A DNA stretch of 64,000 nt from Nitrospirota bacterium (GTDB taxonomy: Bacteria; Nitrospirota; UBA9217): positions 2,496,001-2,560,000 of the forward strand of contig CAVTRN010000002.1 of NCBI GenBank assembly GCA_963737155.1. The letters run 5' to 3'. The notes beneath the pieces were generated by a model that was given only the letters and a program-made list of their open reading frames with translations, searched no databases and was not told where the DNA came from. Every line of letters begins with the position of its first letter. The first letter of the stretch is position 1. Made by a program: the position numbers and the translations under genes. Shown piece by piece: positions 1 through 29,409 of the stretch.

Positions 1-76
1 CAATGGCTATCAGCGCTATCCTGCTGCGTGAGCTCCGGGAACTGCGGTTTGTTTTTAAATAATTCCGTTTGCGCAT
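1..76 (-). CDS. Possible 5' end of a gene running off the left edge (basic N-terminus then a hydrophobic stretch)
   Basis: ATG at 76 reads MRKRNYLKTNRSSRSSRSRIALIAI with no stop before the edge; resembles a signal or anchor start. Too short to identify. Confidence 0.35.
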   Translation of the reverse strand, partial: MRKRNYLKTNRSSRSSRSRIALIAI

Positions 77-217
77 GGCATGAGTAGCGTGGTAGCCGCT
101 CGCTTTTTGTGTTACGGAAAAGAAAAGGACCGGGCTGTAAAAACAATACCACGAAGATCGGCTTCGTGGTAAAGTTGCACATCTGCATTTCGGATATGCT
201 TTATATCCCAAGCTTCG

Positions 218-274
218 TTATTTCTTTTTGGTGGTCTTCTTCGCCTTCTTTGCCGGGGCTTTCTTCGTCGCCAT
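218..274 (-). CDS. 18-aa Lys/Ala/Thr-rich micropeptide (MATKKAPAKKAKKTTKKK), histone H1-tail-like
   Basis: Manual translation, ATG 274 to TAA 218; SD-like GGAAGGGGGTGA just upstream; below the ORF-track cutoff. Confidence 0.7.
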   Translation of the reverse strand: MATKKAPAKKAKKTTKKK

Positions 275-367
275 GAGTCATCACCCCCTTCCATAAATGA
301 ATTTAAAATACGTGGCAAACAGGTAAGCTAACCTTGGTTCCACGCTCATTGCCAATCAGGGCAAATA

Positions 368-394
368 CGCCGGGGGACTCTGTGGCCCCCGGCG
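368..394 (-). terminator. GC-rich hairpin, likely intrinsic terminator after micropeptide 427-489
   Basis: Perfect 9-bp stem CGCCGGGGG/CCCCCGGCG, 9-nt loop, followed by TATTT on the minus strand. Confidence 0.55.
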
Positions 395-426
395 GGCCCC
401 ACTCTGCGGGACGCGATGCATGAAAA

Positions 427-489
427 CTACTTCTTCTTGGTGGCCTTCTTTTTGGTCGCTTTCTTCTTCGCTTTCTTCTTGGCTGCCAT
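427..489 (-). CDS. 20-aa Lys-rich micropeptide (MAAKKKAKKKATKKKATKKK), histone H1-tail-like
   Basis: Manual translation, ATG 489 to TAG 427; SD-like GAAAGGGGGTGG; starts 47 nt after the HEPN stop. Confidence 0.75.
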   Translation of the reverse strand: MAAKKKAKKKATKKKATKKK

Positions 490-536
490 TATTTGTCCAC
501 CCCCTTTCGGCATACCGCGTTCGGACTCAAGCGGCC

Positions 537-1022
537 TTATCTTGAAACAAGCTGAGGTACATAGTTAAGCAGTGACATCTGCGAGTACTTCTCCCGTATC
601 CTGCCGTTCACAAGCTCGATAAATTCCTCAGCATCTTTGATTGCTTGCCCTGCCTCATACCGGGATATGATGTGTTCGGCATCCTCTATAAAGCTCTGAT
701 ATTTCCGCCGCATTCTGTCAAACTTATTAATAAGACTTTTAAATTGCTCGCCGAGCAGCACTCCGGCGGCGGTTACTATGGTCTTTTGGGCATCTCGGCC
801 CCGGACTCCTTTGGGCCTGAAACCCTCGGTAGAAATCAAAGCTCTTGCTGAGCGAACCATTGCCAGGTAGGCAGTCGCAAAAGCCCATTCTTCGTCTTTG
901 TCCTGCAGAAGTTTGCTTGTCGCAAGGTCACGCTCCGCACGGGTAACGAGAGCTATGACCTCGCTGATCTCCGAAGAGCGCTCCTCAACAATCCCCAGAT
1001 TTTTTAACCTTTCATAAGTCAT
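537..1022 (-). CDS. HEPN domain protein with a degenerate catalytic motif
   Basis: AERDL..A..LL, AYLAMVRSARALI..EGFRP and FDRMRRK..A..AIKDAEEFI match HEPN helices; overlaps the MNT gene. No R-x4-6-H motif (RRKYQSFIED). Confidence 0.8.
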   Translation of the reverse strand: MTYERLKNLGIVEERSSEISEVIALVTRAERDLATSKLLQDKDEEWAFATAYLAMVRSARALISTEGFRPKGVRGRDAQKTIVTAAGVLLGEQFKSLINKFDRMRRKYQSFIEDAEHIISRYEAGQAIKDAEEFIELVNGRIREKYSQMSLLNYVPQLVSR

Positions 1023-1578
1023 CTTCCTTGCCTACCAGAAAAATTTTCTTGCCTTTCAATAATTCCCGTATAAAGGGATCCTTAGATTCCTTCCGTTTAC
1101 GGTACTCCTGCTCATCAAATACCAGATAATCGATGTCCTGCTTCAATTTTTCTTCAAGGCCCATCACCATATCGTTTAATTCCGTGATGTTTGCTTGGCC
1201 AATGACCATGAGATTGATGTTGCTGTCCTCTTTCTCAGACCCCTTGGCGTAGGATCCATAAATGAACGCCGCCTGAACCCCCTTAAGCCGGGAGAGCGAC
1301 GTCTTCATGGCGCCTTGCGCACCGGTCGTTTTGAAAATTAGACCTTTCATCTCGGCGAAGATCGGGGAATTTTTATTCGCGAAGTAGTATTTCTGGACAC
1401 CCCGCTTTTCTTTTCCCAAGAGCCCGATCTTAACAAGGTTGTCAAGCTCACGCTTGATCCCCGCCGCATCCTTCCCGATATGGCGCGCTATCTCCCTCAG
1501 ATAGAACCGATCATCCGGGTTGTTAAAGAACAGGCCTAAAAGCTCCGCTCTTGTCGAAGAGAAGAGTTTTGTCAGCAC
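1012..1578 (-). CDS. wHTH + minimal nucleotidyltransferase (MNT) fold protein, DxD replaced by NxN
   Basis: N-terminal wHTH (FYLREIARHIG..IKRELDNL); AFIYGSYAKG..DSNINLMVIG. GTG start with RBS GAGGTGA. Confidence 0.85.
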   Translation of the reverse strand: MLTKLFSSTRAELLGLFFNNPDDRFYLREIARHIGKDAAGIKRELDNLVKIGLLGKEKRGVQKYYFANKNSPIFAEMKGLIFKTTGAQGAMKTSLSRLKGVQAAFIYGSYAKGSEKEDSNINLMVIGQANITELNDMVMGLEEKLKQDIDYLVFDEQEYRKRKESKDPFIRELLKGKKIFLVGKEDDL

Positions 1579-1591
1579 CTTGTATCACCTC

Positions 1592-1630
1592 GTGGACAAA
1601 ATATACTACAAGAGTGTATATTTTGTCAAC
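1592..1630 (-). promoter_or_regulatory. Sigma70-like promoter overlapped by a 12-bp inverted repeat (putative autoregulatory operator)
   Basis: GACAAAATATAC (1595-1606), 9-nt spacer, GTATATTTTGTC (1616-1627); minus strand TTGACA-18-TATATT. Confidence 0.7.
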
Positions 1631-2146
1631 AAGAAAATTAAACAAATTATTTTTCCTATGGTTAGACAATTTATCAACACCGTAATCAACATGTTGAAAA
1701 ATTGTTCACAAATATTATTGTTTTGTCGATCATTTTCACACTATTACTTGTTAGGATTCGGCATCGCGAACTGGTGTTTTCCGGTGCTTCGATTGCATGC
1801 CAACCAGCAAGCGTCAATGCAACTTCCACGGCAAGATGAAAATATCCGCTCAAATAGCGCATCTATCAAGCGAAATGCACAAGCTCGGGTTCGATAACAA
1901 TGAATCAAGTTGGCGCATGAGTGCTAGAAATCTCACCTTAATATTTTTCATGCCGAGATTTTTAGTATCAGCGATGTTGAAATAAACTCCATTGAATCGC
2001 GGGCCATTTACGCGAATTCACAGACTCAGCAGATTTCTCTTTTGTTCGCCGCGTCACTTATGGTATAGTAAGTAAAATAAATCGTTGACATATTGTCTTC
2101 AAAAATTATTTTGTCATCAAATATTATTCGTATTATTCGGAGAACA

Positions 2147-3400
2147 ATGGAATTCAGTAAATTAGAGATACCCTATGAAGTAAAGCAGGGAATCGAGGAG
2201 GCAGGCTTCACGATTTGCACACCCGTTCAGGAAGAAGTCATCCCGCGGGCTGTTCGCGGAGAAGATGTAGCGGCGCAGGCACAGACAGGCACAGGCAAAA
2301 CAGCGGCTTTTCTTATTTCGCTGTTCACTCGGATGATCAGAAACCCGGTGGTGGACTTAGCGAACTCTCCTCAGGCGCTCATCATCGCTCCGACGCGCGA
2401 GCTTGCCGACCAGATATACCACGAAGCATTGCGTCTGGGAAAGTTCACGGGTTACCGCCTCCTGGCAGTCTATGGCGGCATCGATTACCAAAAACAGATG
2501 GATACCCTCCAGAAGGGCGTTGATGTGCTCATTGGAACCCCGGGCAGGCTCATTGATTATTACAAACAGAACATCTACAGCCTCAAGAAGACTCGCTATC
2601 TGATCATCGACGAGGCCGACCGCATGTTCGACATGGGTTTCATCGACGATCTGCGGTATCTTCTCCGGAAAATGCAACCTTATACCAAGCGACAGTCAAT
2701 GCTCTTCTCGGCAACTCTCTCCTACCGTGTGATGGAACTCGCCTATGAATTTATGAACCTTTCTGAGAAGATTTCGATCACGCCAGAAAAAATAACCGTG
2801 GAGCAGGTGGAACAGGTCCTTTACCACGTCGGTAAACACGAGAAAATTCCGCTCCTGCTCGGACTCCTTAGAAAGGAAAAACCCTTCCGCACACTCATCT
2901 TCGTGAACACCCGGCGCGCGGCCGACATGGTCGTTGAGCGTTTGAACCGGAACAATTGGAAGGCCGATGCGATCACCGGCGACATCATCCAGAAAAAAAG
3001 GCTCCGGCTTCTCGCTGAATTTAAAGAAGGAAAACTTCCCATTCTCGTCGCGACCGACGTGGCCAGCCGCGGCATTCATGTCGAAGGGGTGACCCATGTC
3101 ATCAATTATGACCTTCCCCAGGACGCCGAGGATTACGTGCACCGCATCGGCCGGACAGGCCGCGCAGGAGCAACGGGAAAAGCACTCAGCCTCGCGGACG
3201 AAGAATACGTCTATTCCCTTGAGGTCATCGAAAAATACATCGGCCAGAAAATCCCAGTAGAGTGGGCCGAAGATACCATGTACGTCAGGGAAATACGCAG
3301 GACCGCGGAAGAAAAAAAGCATGCTGCGGCAATTGCGGTACAGAAACTCCATCACCCCTCAAAGAACCGCCGTTTCCAATCGAGAACAAAACACCATTAA
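2147..3400 (+). CDS. DEAD-box ATP-dependent RNA helicase (RhlB-like)
   Basis: AQTGTGKT, PTRELA, DEAD, SAT, HRIGRTGR motifs; ATG 2147 follows GGAG. Confidence 0.93.
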   Translation: MEFSKLEIPYEVKQGIEEAGFTICTPVQEEVIPRAVRGEDVAAQAQTGTGKTAAFLISLFTRMIRNPVVDLANSPQALIIAPTRELADQIYHEALRLGKFTGYRLLAVYGGIDYQKQMDTLQKGVDVLIGTPGRLIDYYKQNIYSLKKTRYLIIDEADRMFDMGFIDDLRYLLRKMQPYTKRQSMLFSATLSYRVMELAYEFMNLSEKISITPEKITVEQVEQVLYHVGKHEKIPLLLGLLRKEKPFRTLIFVNTRRAADMVVERLNRNNWKADAITGDIIQKKRLRLLAEFKEGKLPILVATDVASRGIHVEGVTHVINYDLPQDAEDYVHRIGRTGRAGATGKALSLADEEYVYSLEVIEKYIGQKIPVEWAEDTMYVREIRRTAEEKKHAAAIAVQKLHHPSKNRRFQSRTKHH

Positions 3401-3618
3401 TCAGGTTCACTGCCACCATGTACCGGTAACCATGAGCGTTGTGAGCTCTTGCCGTAATTTAGAATAGCCGCTCACAACAGATTCCAGCAACGCATGTTAG
3501 TGAATGCTGTTTTCCCACGGTGGTATAATAGTATCAGGGATTAGAGATGATTTTCCTCTTAAATTATTCTTACAACCCGGCCATATGGGAAGGCGCTTAA
3601 GCAAAGGGGTGTTTCGCC

Positions 3619-5325
3619 ATGGTTGAATTTATGTCAACTACAAATTATGAACGACCTTGGCTCCGTTTTTACGAACCCAGCGTTCCCTCCAGCCTTACCT
3701 ACCCCGAGATTACGCTCGGAGGCGTTCTTGAGCGGAATGCAAGGAAATACCCGGACCATCATGTGATCCTTTTTTACGGGAAGAAAATTTCCTACCGCGA
3801 GCTTGATAAACTTGCGAACCAATTTGGACGAGCCCTCACTACACTGGGGGTGAAAAAAGGCCATCGCGTCGCGCTCATGCTGCCCAATATCCCGCAAATG
3901 GTAATTGCCTACTATGGGGCGCTTCGAACCGGTGCCGTAGTTGTTCCGACCAACCCGCTTTACCACGAGCATGAGCTGGAAGTGCAGCTCAAGGACAGCG
4001 GAACCGAGACGCTCGTTGCGGTCGACATGTTTTATCCAATGATTTCCCGCGTTATTCCGCGGACAAAGGTCAACCATCTAATCCTCTGCGGCATTAAGGA
4101 TTATCTCCCCTTTCCCTTGAACCTTCTGTACCCGGTAAAGGCGTGGATCAACCGGGAATGGGTTCGTGTAAAACGCGCACCTCCAATCTATGATTTTCTC
4201 GATATCATGAGAGATAAAGACGCTTCCCCGCCCGATGCAACGGTGTCCCCTGATGATGTTGCGTTGCTCCAATACACCGGCGGTACGACAGGGATACCAA
4301 AAGGCGCCATCCTGACCCATCGCAACCTTGTAGTGAACGCCGTACAAAGCAATGCCTGGCTTACACTAGGGAATGAAGATAAAGTGATTATTCTCGCGGT
4401 AATCCCCTTTTTCCATGTTTACGGAATGACAACGGCCATGAACCTCGGCATCTTCATGGGTGCCGAACTGCTCCTTCTTCCCAAGTTTCATACGAAGGAG
4501 GTGCTGCGATTCATTGAAAAGTACCGGCCTCAGATATTCCCGGGTATTCAGGCCATGTATCTTGCTATAGGCCATTATCCAAAGGTTCGGAAGTACGATC
4601 TGTCGTCAGCGAAGGTCGCCCTGAGTGGAGCAGGTCCTCTGATGCATGAGGTGCAGGAGCAATTTGAGCGCGCGACAGGAGGAAGGATTGTTGAAGGATA
4701 TGGCCTTTCCGAAGCATCGCCCGTGACCCATGCTAATCCGATTTTCGGCAAGCGAAAAGCGGGCAGCATCGGCCTGCCCTGGCCAGATACCGAAGCGCGG
4801 ATTATGGACATCGAGACCGGCGAGAAAATACTTCCGATCGGCGAAACAGGGGAGCTCGTCATCAGGGGACCGCAGGTCATGAGCGGCTACTGGCACAAGC
4901 CAACGGAAACAGCGACAGCGCTGCGAAATGGATGGCTCCATACCGGCGATATCGCCAGAATGGATGAAGACGGCTACTTCTTCATCGTGGACAGGATTAA
5001 GGACATGATCAAAACGGTGGGAGAGAATGTTTATCCACGTGAAGTGGAGGAAGTGCTCTACACACACCCCAAGGTTAAGGAAGCGGTAGTTGTCGGACTC
5101 CCGCATGAGGAATATCTCGGGGAGAAGATCAAGGCGTTCATCGTCCTGAAGGAAGGAACGACTGCGACAGCCGAGGAGATTATCCAGTACTGTCGAGAGC
5201 AGCTGTCGAAATTTAAAGTGCCGAAAGAGGTTGAATTTCGCGACAGGCTCCCAAAAACCCTAGTAGGAAAAGTGCTTCGCAGAGTGCTCCGGGATGAAGA
5301 GATAAAGAAAGTCGAGGCGAAATGA
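3619..5325 (+). CDS. fadD: Long-chain-fatty-acid--CoA ligase
   Basis: YTGGTTGIPKG AMP-binding loop, EGYGLSE, LHTGD, PKT..GK. Confidence 0.9.
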   Translation: MVEFMSTTNYERPWLRFYEPSVPSSLTYPEITLGGVLERNARKYPDHHVILFYGKKISYRELDKLANQFGRALTTLGVKKGHRVALMLPNIPQMVIAYYGALRTGAVVVPTNPLYHEHELEVQLKDSGTETLVAVDMFYPMISRVIPRTKVNHLILCGIKDYLPFPLNLLYPVKAWINREWVRVKRAPPIYDFLDIMRDKDASPPDATVSPDDVALLQYTGGTTGIPKGAILTHRNLVVNAVQSNAWLTLGNEDKVIILAVIPFFHVYGMTTAMNLGIFMGAELLLLPKFHTKEVLRFIEKYRPQIFPGIQAMYLAIGHYPKVRKYDLSSAKVALSGAGPLMHEVQEQFERATGGRIVEGYGLSEASPVTHANPIFGKRKAGSIGLPWPDTEARIMDIETGEKILPIGETGELVIRGPQVMSGYWHKPTETATALRNGWLHTGDIARMDEDGYFFIVDRIKDMIKTVGENVYPREVEEVLYTHPKVKEAVVVGLPHEEYLGEKIKAFIVLKEGTTATAEEIIQYCREQLSKFKVPKEVEFRDRLPKTLVGKVLRRVLRDEEIKKVEAK

Positions 5326-5435
5326 CGAGGATCGGTATCGTGAGACACGAACAATAATCAGCTCTTGAAGTAGGTGTCCACCCGTTCTTCGCTTCCCATC
5401 CAGCCCGGCGCTTGCCATTTAACGAGGCAATGCTC

Positions 5436-6719
5436 ATGAAGGAAGTCGTTATCATAGATGGTTTGCGAACACCTTACGCCAAGGCCGGCACGGCTTTCAA
5501 GGATGTACCTGCTGTTGACCTCGGGGCAGCCATTCTCAGAGAGATCGTCGCGCGCACTGGGCTCGACCGGGATCGCATTGACGAGGTAATCATCGGCAAT
5601 GCGGGGATGCCTTCGGAAGCGGCCAACATTGCCCGGGTTATCGCGCTCCGCGCGGGAATTCCCGAGCGGATACCTGCTTACAGTGTGCAGAGGAATTGCG
5701 CGTCGGGCATGCAAGCGGTGGCGAGCGCCTATACCCAGATCCTCGCTGGCATGAGCAAGGTCGTGCTTGTTGGTGGTGTGGAGTCCATGTCCAATTATCC
5801 CTTCTATATAAAGAAGAAACTTCGTGATGTTCTGACTAGCGTGCAGAAATCCAAAAAGGTCGGCGGGAGAATTCGGGCAATCCTCTCGCTCCGGCCGAAG
5901 GATTTCGTACCTATTATCGGCCTCACGGAGGGGCTGACTGATCCAATCTCAGGGCTCATCATGGGCGAGACCGCGGAAGTTCTCGTGCGGGATTTCGCGA
6001 TCACGCGCCGCGAACAGGACGAATATGCTCTTGAAAGCCACCGGCGATGGGCAACAGCGAATGAGGCGGGAAAGTTTAAAAACGAAATCGTTCCCTACTA
6101 CGTGCCGCCGGATTTCCAAGCTGTTACAGAAGACATCGGGCCGCGCAAAAGCCAAACTCTGGAGGCCTTGCAAAAACTGAAGCCTTATTTCGATAAACGG
6201 TTTGGAACTGTCAGCGCAGGGAATTCATCGCCCATTACCGACGGTGCTGCAGCCGCTATTATCATGAGCACCGATCAGGCAAGGGAAATGGGCTACCACC
6301 CGCTCGGCCGCATCAGGGCCGTGGCCTTTGTCGGGTTTGATCCATCCCGTATGGGCATCAGTCCGCTCCATGCCACACATAAGGTTTTGAAGCTTGCAGG
6401 CATGACCATGAAAGACATTGGCCTCATAGAGCTGAACGAGGCTTTTGCAGCTCAGATCATTGCCGTGGAACGGGCCGCAGTGTCGAAGGAGTATTTTGCC
6501 AAGAATCTACCCGGCCAGGAACCGGTCGGCGAGTTCCGGCGCGATATCATGAACGTAAACGGTGGCGCGATTGCACTAGGGCATCCAGTCGGTTCATCGG
6601 GCCTCCGGATCATCATCACGCTACTGAAGGAAATGGAGCGCCGGGGCCTCTCAACCGGCCTCGCCACACTCTGTATCGGCGGCGGCCAGGGCGGGGCCAT
6701 GATCGTTGAGCGTATTTGA
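5436..6719 (+). CDS. fadI: Acetyl-CoA C-acyltransferase (3-ketoacyl-CoA thiolase, FadI-like)
   Basis: RNCASG, NEAFA, GHPVG, LCIGGGQG catalytic motifs; adjacent to FadJ. Confidence 0.88.
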   Translation: MKEVVIIDGLRTPYAKAGTAFKDVPAVDLGAAILREIVARTGLDRDRIDEVIIGNAGMPSEAANIARVIALRAGIPERIPAYSVQRNCASGMQAVASAYTQILAGMSKVVLVGGVESMSNYPFYIKKKLRDVLTSVQKSKKVGGRIRAILSLRPKDFVPIIGLTEGLTDPISGLIMGETAEVLVRDFAITRREQDEYALESHRRWATANEAGKFKNEIVPYYVPPDFQAVTEDIGPRKSQTLEALQKLKPYFDKRFGTVSAGNSSPITDGAAAAIIMSTDQAREMGYHPLGRIRAVAFVGFDPSRMGISPLHATHKVLKLAGMTMKDIGLIELNEAFAAQIIAVERAAVSKEYFAKNLPGQEPVGEFRRDIMNVNGGAIALGHPVGSSGLRIIITLLKEMERRGLSTGLATLCIGGGQGGAMIVERI

Positions 6720-29073: not shown

Positions 29074-29409
29074 ATGGAGAGACCGGACAAAGTTGAGAAA
29101 GAAGATACGCAGAAAATAAAGCTCATTTTTCTCTCACTTGCAGTATTAGCGACGATCTTGCTGATTTGGAGTTTATATGCCGCTAACAAGGCCAGAACAG
29201 AGCGGGACTCTGCCAGGCAGGATTTGGAGCAGTTGAAACAGGACAATGCAAAACTCGAAGAGATGGTGAAAGACCAAAACCAGGAAATAGACGCTCTTAA
29301 GAAGCAAGTACAGGAGTGGGAAGCCAAAGCCAAAACAAAGCCTGTGGTCAAGAAAAAGGCTCGAGCCAAAGTCAAGAAAAAGAAGAAGAAGTCAACAAAA
29401 CATTATTAG
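29074..29409 (+). CDS. Single-TM coiled-coil protein with a Lys-rich C-terminal tail
   Basis: TM helix, heptad coil, tail KAKTKPVVKKKARAKVKKKKKKSTKHY; RBS AAGGAGG upstream. Confidence 0.75.
   Translation: MERPDKVEKEDTQKIKLIFLSLAVLATILLIWSLYAANKARTERDSARQDLEQLKQDNAKLEEMVKDQNQEIDALKKQVQEWEAKAKTKPVVKKKARAKVKKKKKKSTKHY

Follow-up and report, generated by a model that had tools for sequence, protein, structure and literature searches.

What has become of a toxin-antitoxin (TA) pair when both of its partners lack their hallmark catalytic and acceptor residues, its frames are intact, and its genes are followed by others for very short, Lys-rich peptides? The question is raised by a 64-kb window of a Nitrospirota genome (assembly GCA_963737155.1, contig CAVTRN010000002.1, positions 2,496,001 to 2,560,000), the whole stretch of DNA that was analyzed. 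Within it, we examined a minus-strand unit spanning positions 137 to 1705, which encodes a winged helix-turn-helix (wHTH) protein with a minimal nucleotidyltransferase (MNT) domain, an overlapping HEPN-domain protein, and two Lys-rich small open reading frames (sORFs). An earlier note on this DNA had proposed a domesticated complex rather than a decaying TA, acting as a regulator or a nucleotide sensor that controls the peptides. The reading that we favor, with moderate confidence, is that the pair is a domesticated descendant of an MNT-HEPN TA or PDC-M05-type module and now works as a nonenzymatic, sequence-specific DNA-binding (auto)regulator of a polycationic micropeptide operon. The same gene arrangement was found again in more than 120 related loci, which places it beyond chance.

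The first partner, hereafter MNT, is a winged helix-turn-helix at its N terminus and a minimal nucleotidyltransferase (NTase) domain at its C terminus, and it matches the Pfam families Polbeta PF18765 (35.5 bits; cutoff, 26.9) and PF01909 (23.1 bits; cutoff, 21). Its best match among solved structures was the nucleotidyltransferase 2rff (E value of 0.006), and the columns of GSYAKGSEKEDSNINL in the MNT and GSRARGDYLDTSDIDI in 2rff align, with N-I-N in the place of D-I-D (GS-x10). The loss of DxD, to which the earlier note had drawn attention with its GS-x10-NIN, turned out to be a property of a whole clade and not of one strain. N-I-N is present in 24/24 loci of the taxonomic family of the window (family f1), other Nitrospirota families read DVN, DID (with GS lost), EID, AVD, or TVD, and the Methylomirabilota orthologs have no trace of GS or DxD (e.g., WLYSTNSHPPGEGLGAILLLIVG); across the clade, the two are worn down to forms such as STNSHPPGEGLGAILLL. 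A genome scan with one genome per species gave 347 related places, of which 80 were kept as genome loci, and GS-x8-13-[SN]DxD was found in 0/80. We also searched the wHTH-MNT family among 1.84 billion cluster representatives, with 5585 matches at an E value of ≤1e-3. Among the best 150, which were inspected, GS..DxD was kept in 135, and the exceptions were mostly fragments of the dead clade or of its nearest relatives (PxR, PxP, PxD, and AxD). The 80 canonical (DxD-bearing) relatives from metagenomes likewise keep GS..DxD, one of them with SS for GS. A third “catalytic Asp” column was tried as an indicator and discarded as uninformative, Asn being found there in most members of the wider family. 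Given that the clade has no conserved residue for the binding of a nucleotide or a metal, the role of nucleotide sensor is disfavored.

The second partner matches Pfam PF05168 (37.5 bits; cutoff, 22), as do its orthologs in Methylomirabilota. No solved relative was recovered with the single sequence, and a profile recovered AF0298 alone (2hsb; E value of 0.027). The absence of the RNase motif Rx4-6H, on which the case for a motif-less HEPN had been built, is weak by itself, since passages of PMC3710099 describe many MNT-associated HEPNs without it, and the argument must rest instead on the loss of R-x-K-R-[HN]-x3-Y. As controls, we used the 45 distinct open reading frames (ORFs) downstream of canonical relatives from metagenomes. 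This longer motif was present in 36/45 of them (e.g., FDRMRRKRHDFIYE) versus 0/27 and 0/15 clade HEPNs, so that the lack of a motif holds clade-wide. The HEPN of the window reads FDRMRRKYQSFIED (RRKYQSFIE), with Y-Q at the R-[HN] pair and Glu at the conserved Tyr. This residue, Glu113, occupies the canonical Tyr column, where E, D, K, V, or Q is found in the other members of the clade; the Tyr of the HEPN motif was proposed as the nucleotidylylation site by Anantharaman et al. 2013, in the passages of that paper (PMC3710099) that bear on it. Residues invariant in the clade are R28, D43, W46, R57, G67, D102, R105, R106, Y122, E123, and A131, of which Y122 is a different Tyr from that of the canonical acceptor column.

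Despite the eroded motifs, neither gene is decaying. Pairwise Nei-Gojobori ratios of nonsynonymous to synonymous substitutions (dN/dS) over the family loci had medians of 0.038 for MNT (208 pairs) and 0.053 for HEPN (100 pairs), the low values that the earlier note had looked for, and within MNT, they were 0.034 for the wHTH half and 0.046 for the NTase half. Both proteins are therefore under strong purifying selection, with both MNT domains constrained. An MNT ortholog was found in 32/41 relatives (23/24 within the same family) and in 126/301 of the Nitrospirota genomes sampled (E value of ≤1e-30), mostly as a single copy. The distribution is close to all or none per family (f1, 57/63; f11, 22/23; f4, 5/5; and f26, 7/7, against f9, 0/50; f10, 0/28; and f17, 0/25), and MNT identity tracks kinship, with 91 to 99% within the genus, 80 to 92% within the family, and 40 to 58% in other families. 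A few other labels aside, the 80 kept genome loci are labeled Nitrospirota or Methylomirabilota/NC10. Among the plasmid and phage records searched for the clade module, none reached 60% identity. Together, the low dN/dS, the family-wise single-copy distribution, the identity by kinship, and the lack of a close plasmid or phage match point to a domesticated core gene and not to a mobile or decaying TA, in line with what had been proposed from the single locus.

We also built a tree by a quick method from 101 rows, that is, every third representative, every third metagenome locus, and chosen clade members. In it, the HEPN-bearing clade (19 rows) had a support of 82 and the HEPN-less one (12 rows) a support of 100, both within a polytomy with canonical groups, so that the dead clade may or may not have arisen once. 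Two loci from long-read metagenome-assembled genomes (L088 and L095) have a frameshifted MNT or HEPN, for which assembly errors are as likely an explanation as pseudogenes.

The link to the Lys-rich ORFs is as widespread as the pair itself. ORFs of this kind, preceded by a Shine-Dalgarno (SD) site, were found downstream in 29/30 loci from relatives, the exception being a locus in which MNT is cut by the contig end. In the genome loci, Lys-rich ORFs follow in 77/80 cases (two ORFs in 62, one in 8, and three in 7), and the remaining 3 have no more than 587 nucleotides (nt) of sequence past MNT. The MNT-then-HEPN order is kept in the HEPN-bearing lineages. There are also HEPN-less lineages, in which a degenerate MNT (GPY..VNL/VDL) is directly followed by a Lys-rich ORF in 14/14 loci (detected by the filter in 10 and by reading in 4), with products from 13 amino acids (aa) up to repeat proteins of 55 to 102 aa, e.g., MAAKKKAAAKKK(TTAKKK)n. 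Since the Lys-rich ORF is kept where the HEPN is gone, the conserved core is the dead wHTH-MNT plus the Lys-rich ORF, with HEPN as an optional middle gene. The HEPN, which the earlier note had placed in the complex, is dispensable, as large sister lineages manage without it. The canonical relatives differ: five canonical paralog loci in Nitrospirota had no Lys-rich ORF; among the canonical metagenome loci, the 57 with a flank of 700 nt or more had no ORF of the A/K/T/P type, with 2 chance ORFs of at least 33% Lys, and the 22 with a shorter flank had no Lys-rich ORF. Synteny with the Lys-rich sORFs, as the earlier note had supposed, is thus conserved, in two phyla and at none of the canonical relatives.

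Could the pair nevertheless be a working, noncatalytic TA or antiphage module, with HEPN as a stoichiometric RNA-binding toxin, the wHTH-MNT as a type II-like antitoxin and repressor, and the sORFs as passengers or a third component? Both PADLOC models of PDC-M05 match the adjacent genes (PDC-M05A to MNT at 4.2e-54 and PDC-M05B to HEPN at 1.6e-16), the presumed antitoxin comes first and overlaps the next gene by 11 nt, and a palindrome lies across the promoter. Moreover, plasmids carry canonical relatives (31 to 37% identity) in 26 records, of which 18 are conjugative and none reaches 60% identity to the module, and motif-less HEPNs can be toxic, as reported in passages of PMC3710099. We judge this explanation quite improbable given the single-copy, family-wise distribution with identity by kinship, the dN/dS of ca. 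0.04 to 0.05, and the absence of plasmid or phage records at or above 60% identity. The neighbors are also housekeeping and not defense genes, and they vary by lineage (DEAD-box helicase, FtsB/DivIC, hemA, LpxC, DksA, dCTP deaminase, and aldehyde dehydrogenase). Whole lineages have lost the presumed toxin and kept the “antitoxin” together with a Lys-rich ORF (14/14), in which case an addiction module makes no sense.

Described systems offer several comparisons. The locus resembles HEPN-MNT TAs (type VII HepT/MntA and the dyads of Makarova 2009 and Anantharaman 2013) in its MNT-first overlapping pair, its Pfam Polbeta/NTP_transf_2 and HEPN domains, and the palindrome over its promoter; the NCBIfam model MntA_antitoxin matches MNT only weakly (27 bits, below the cutoff of 60). 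It differs from them in that the MNTs of the clade lack DxD, and mostly GS too, and carry an N-terminal wHTH, in that its HEPNs lack R..[HN]..Y, with Glu at the Tyr position in the window, and in being a core, vertically inherited, chromosomal module with a dN/dS of ca. 0.04, attached Lys-rich sORFs, and a dispensable HEPN. TA modules in general are patchy, mobile, and multicopy, unlike the family-wise and mostly single-copy distribution found here. From the strong matches to both of its models, automatic annotation would call the locus PDC-M05, a system whose antiviral role is given as unconfirmed in the excerpt of PMC12988326 that concerns it. The clade departs from PDC-M05 in its lost motifs, its housekeeping neighbors in place of a defense island, and the added peptide payload. 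Inactive HEPN regulators are known, in passages of PMC3710099, from MtlR and from HEPNs fused to active NTases (kanamycin NTase and GlnE type), and in these, as presumably here, a noncatalytic HEPN is retained for a regulatory or binding role. In those cases, however, the NTase is active or the HEPN solitary, whereas here both partners look inactive, are separate proteins, and have a wHTH on the NTase. We found in the literature no description of a dead MNT-HEPN pair tied to Lys-rich sORFs, and supplementary family lists (e.g., that of Anantharaman 2013) might include the subfamily. The domains and their order were already known; what we did not find described is the combination of two inactive-looking partners, core in two phyla and tied to ultrashort, histone tail-like sORFs.

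Are the Lys-rich frames genes at all? In family f1, the identical 20-aa peptide of sORF1 was found in 14/23 loci, from 13 distinct DNA sequences. Over this set, which was selected for identity of the peptide, 0 of 19 first, 0 of 19 second, and 12 of 19 third codon positions vary; over 12 sORF2 loci chosen by length only, 4, 1, and 17 of 17 do, respectively. All 23 aligned family f1 loci share the SD core AAAGGGGGTGG unchanged, with ATG and stop conserved alongside it, while the sequence of the SD-ATG spacer is variable and its length differs by ±1 nt; both sORFs of the window have near-perfect SD sites. The variation at third codon positions and the SD sites support the view that the sORFs are translated. 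An antisense frame rich in F and L shares its third positions with the sense frame, and for that reason it was checked separately. The hydrophobic antisense ORFs were rejected as candidates, as neither start nor SD nor length is conserved among them and the start is missing altogether at some loci.

The frames could otherwise be purine-rich RNA, the complement of an antisense F/L-rich peptide gene, or a leader-peptide attenuator. Third-position variation alone cannot separate frames whose third positions coincide, and hairpins do lie 3′ of the sORFs. Yet the ATG, stop, and SD stand at a fixed distance, a change of ±1 nt in the spacer would shift an antisense frame, and the peptide family is found in two phyla under widely differing nucleotide sequences and also as long repeat proteins. 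Leader-peptide attenuators have a short ORF upstream of the genes that they regulate, with alternative terminator and antiterminator hairpins, whereas the sORFs of the clade come last in the unit, at its 3′ end, each followed by a hairpin, and the next gene varies by lineage. There was also no match in a scan of window positions 1 to 6000 against Rfam (E value of ≤1). We consider an origin of this kind hardly credible.

The peptides are rich in A, K, T, and P, with repeats of the PAKKA and KKTTA types and essentially no Arg or aromatic residues. Their charge ranges from +8.5 to +11.5, and in the HEPN-bearing clade, they are 13 to 30 aa long, with one to three per operon. Bacterial H1-like Lys-rich proteins include Hc1/Hc2 of Chlamydia, AlgP of Pseudomonas, the HupB tail of mycobacteria, and DdbA of Streptomyces. 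The peptides are like these in being A/K/P/T low-complexity polycations with repeats of the PAKKA/AKKA type and unlike them in their length, in having no globular domain, in being encoded by separate tandem sORFs, and in their tie to a dead MNT. The resemblance to the tails of histone H1 and Hc2 is compositional only. The Pfam model HC2 (PF07382) matched 2 of 4 long forms (66 to 102 aa) at 18.1 bits (E value of 0.003), below its cutoff of 40. The 28-aa upstream-extended form of sORF1 (427..513), the only sORF sequence of the window that was scanned, had no Pfam or NCBIfam match. An exact lookup of four sORF sequences and four long Lys-rich forms in a collection of 15 billion proteins found none of them, in the case of the sORFs because gene callers skip ORFs so short, and a homology search with a 66-aa Lys-rich form scored 8000 candidates, none of them significant. 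The peptide class itself could be categorically new. Going by their composition, the peptides most likely bind polyanions, DNA in the first place, with RNA or polyphosphate as alternatives.

Two further properties of the sORFs were recorded. Tandem copies encode identical peptides at three loci (L092, L100, and L107), a pattern suggestive of duplication or gene conversion in the recent past and of selection for dosage. At L025/L026, L081 to L085, L094, L096, and L099, the first Lys-rich sORF, and not the later ones, ends in Cys (..KKGKC, ..KKKRC, ..GGKGC, and ..GGRGC); such peptides could form disulfide dimers or bind metal.

Under the same regulation, the peptides might instead be ribosome- or RNA-associated small basic proteins and not nucleoid or polyphosphate binders. 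Small basic proteins that offer ribosomal parallels are Thx, bS22, bL37, and eL41. The very short and very basic ORFs with very strong SDs would fit such proteins, as would the duplicates that suggest selection for dosage, and a DEAD-box RNA helicase gene adjoins the module in family f1. This neighbor is not conserved beyond family f1, however, and the composition, the repeats, and the expansion to 55 to 102 aa look H1/Hc2-like (the HC2 matches being below the cutoff), with essentially no Arg or aromatics. We therefore think this identity improbable.

A different possibility is that the peptides are a harmful component that coats nucleic acids or ribosomes, with the dead MNT, with or without HEPN, as a neutralizer or chaperone and as the repressor, in a new kind of three-part TA-like system or stress-dormancy switch. 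In more than 120 loci, the Lys-rich ORFs are closely linked to a regulator gene that invariably precedes them, the minimal conserved pair is MNT plus the Lys-rich ORF, the peptides are strongly charged, and the NTase-like half of MNT is mildly acidic, with an isoelectric point (pI) of 5.5. The whole MNT (pI, 9.3) and HEPN (pI, 8.8) are basic and so would be poor partners for a polycation, which speaks against a simple acidic-chaperone role, and the identical tandem sORFs with very strong SDs suggest selection for high dosage and not a restrained toxin. This arrangement seems to us highly improbable.

The GTTGACAAA −35 box and the −10 box are kept upstream of orthologs in both phyla, and the pattern GTTGA[CT]A..N22-32..T[CT][ACT]AC, which covers the inverted repeat over the promoter, was present in 102/122 loci with enough upstream sequence (78/96 distinct sequences). 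The half-site TTGACAAAATATAC has a single occurrence in the 4.8-Mb genome, so that the simplest target of the wHTH would be its own promoter and hence the sORFs; a further match to the putative operator in the genome is one loose match at C1:757544. The conserved promoter and inverted repeat and the genome-unique half-site are what leads us to infer that the pair regulates the peptides, and the wHTH would bind the repeat at 1589 to 1633. In HEPN-less loci L116 to L129, a TATAAT-like box often lies 4 to 8 nt before the MNT start, with no SD (e.g., ..TATATAAGTG ATG), which suggests that their MNT mRNAs are leaderless or nearly so.

At the RNA level, parts of the stretch were found in 10 metatranscriptome runs from four studies and in 2 RNA-labeled, probably DNA, runs from a fifth study; the contigs of four runs from three studies were compared with the window. 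One contig of 1389 nt (X2 record 9), ca. 90% identical and from a relative, covers 231..1583 and with it all four ORFs. Two others (X1 record 1, 219..499, and X5 record 11, 229..450) run from sORF1 across the first hairpin into sORF2, and all three read through the hairpin at 368 to 394. RNA-library contigs thus bridge the genes, an outcome in favor of the earlier note. The contigs of three runs (two studies) stop at 1583 to 1585, ca. 8 to 10 nt short of the start predicted from the −10 box, a weak hint of a transcript end rather than contaminating DNA. In X5, the summed contig depth is far higher over the sORFs than over HEPN, but such depths cannot rank genes and were not used as evidence. 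In addition, contigs of three RNA runs end at 229 to 231 with adapter letters. These ends likely reflect priming inside the transcript, at the A-rich end of sORF2, and not a real RNA end.

Both partners have lost their hallmark catalytic and acceptor residues, and strong purifying selection keeps them as a chromosomal module that is single copy and vertically inherited. In the mechanism that we propose, the wHTH-NTase-like protein, together with HEPN where present, would bind the inverted repeat over its own promoter, and the payload of the operon would be one to three translated A/K/T/P-rich micropeptides resembling free tails of the histone H1, Hc2, or AlgP type. As a speculation, the change from Tyr to Glu at the presumed acceptor may have locked HEPN in a “modified-like,” harmless state, after which the chemistry of MNT would be dispensable. 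From the sequences, we infer operator binding and repression, a persisting MNT-HEPN complex, and the biochemical role of the peptides. A fuller version, which is conceivable but which we regard as unlikely, is a polycation homeostasis circuit in which the TA-derived pseudoenzyme pair sets the level of a new class of 13- to 30-aa histone tail-like peptides, the Glu mimics a “neutralized” HEPN, and the complex is a repressor that senses free peptide.

Several observations weigh against a nonenzymatic regulator of the peptides. Since the clade amounts to about one lineage, the association of dead motif and Lys-rich ORF counts as about one event, long maintained. Asn is still able to ligate metal, so the NIN form of family f1 may have residual activity. 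A genome-scale screen found toxicity, as passages of PMC3710099 report, for HEPNs of MNT-HEPN dyads that lack the motif, and its loss is thus no proof of harmlessness. The −35 half of the putative operator is also plain consensus TTGACA, and the downstream half-site is missing in 20/122 loci, among them those of HEPN-less lineages and one further family, in which an additional direct box resembling GTTTACAAA is often present upstream. DNA may be present in the RNA libraries, and one contig does not equal one transcript. Finally, the genome has further Lys-rich sORFs that are unlinked to the MNT-HEPN pair.

The features of the unit are collected in Table 1; the coordinates, frames, ribosome-binding sites, promoter, palindrome, and sORFs first described for it were all accurate.

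Table 1. Positions in the 64-kb window of the features of the MNT-HEPN-sORF unit
Feature	Position	Strand	Remarks
Promoter, sigma-70 type: TTGACA (1629-1624), 18-nt spacer, TATATT (1605-1600)	1600..1629	-	11/12 consensus matches
Inverted repeat, putative operator: arms 1589-1606 / 1616-1633, core GACAAAATATAC / GTATATTTTGTC, 18 nt	1589..1633		promoter-spanning
Second inverted repeat, ACAATTTATCAACA / TGTTGAAAAATTGT, holding the GTTGATAAATTGTCTAAC box	1666..1705		flanked by the MNT promoter and the DEAD-box helicase gene, which is divergent
wHTH-nucleotidyltransferase-like protein (MNT), 188 aa, GTG start	1012..1578	-	predicted DNA-binding pseudoenzyme
HEPN-domain protein, 161 aa	537..1022	-	11-nt overlap with MNT
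SD site of sORF1, AAAGGGGGTGGA	496..507	-	core AAAGGGGGTGG
sORF1, 20-aa polycationic peptide MAAKKKAKKKATKKKATKKK, charge ca. +11.5	427..489	-	
GC-rich double hairpin 3′ of sORF1, CGCCGGGGG..CCCCCGGCG at 368-394, weak U tract	362..412	-	
SD site of sORF2, AAGGGGGTGA	281..290	-	
sORF2, 18-aa peptide MATKKAPAKKAKKTTKKK, PAKKA-type motif inside	218..274	-	
Intrinsic terminator closing the unit, ACCACGAAG..CTTCGTGGT plus T run	137..171	-	hairpin 147-171, z -3.76

sORF1 starts 47 nt past the HEPN stop. The hairpin at 368 to 394 (−32.2 kcal/mol; z, −1.7) and the closing terminator are both kept in the family loci, and the double hairpin is possibly a leaky terminator or an RNA-stabilizing 3′ structure. 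A hairpin 5′ of the sORF1 SD was no more stable than shuffled sequence (z, +0.73). The GTTGATAAATTGTCTAAC box of the second repeat is kept in the family f1 loci and has a single occurrence in the genome. On the same strand, the unit is followed by an FtsB/DivIC-like gene, and the divergent upstream gene encodes the DEAD-box helicase.

Other Lys-rich sequences were seen in the genome of the window (G000). Near 1118784 of contig C1 lies a third micropeptide family (L242 to L253), MACG(S/T)(K/R)CGAKK...KKK, of 25 to 29 aa, with an N-terminal Cys-x3-4-Cys and a Lys-rich tail. Its ORF, with a strong SD and a terminator of its own, follows a RibF-like gene and is unlinked to any MNT; the family was present in 10/12 fetched loci of the genus, and its DNA was matched in 12/14 genomes of the same genus. 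Another SD-preceded Lys-rich ORF of 20 aa, MAASRQGAKKETKKPKSKKK, is found near C1 929451, and a GroES-like protein of 202 aa with a long Lys-rich C-terminal tail is found at C2 983718 to 984326. Within the window, near position 29344 (C2:2525344, plus strand), a 21-aa Lys-rich ORF, MVKKKARAKVKKKKKKSTKHY, has no SD and is probably due to chance or part of a larger gene.

The locus offers a clean natural case of the domestication of a full TA or candidate-defense pair, in which the chemistry was lost in both partners and the genes are still core and constrained. As annotators call it PDC-M05, defense counts would be inflated in Nitrospirota and Methylomirabilota. The peptides provide a minimal, synthesizable model for the organization of nucleic acid or polyphosphate by polycations in bacteria. 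If the polycation circuit were true, they would be the smallest dedicated nucleoid or polyanion organizers known in bacteria, spread across two phyla and invisible to gene callers.

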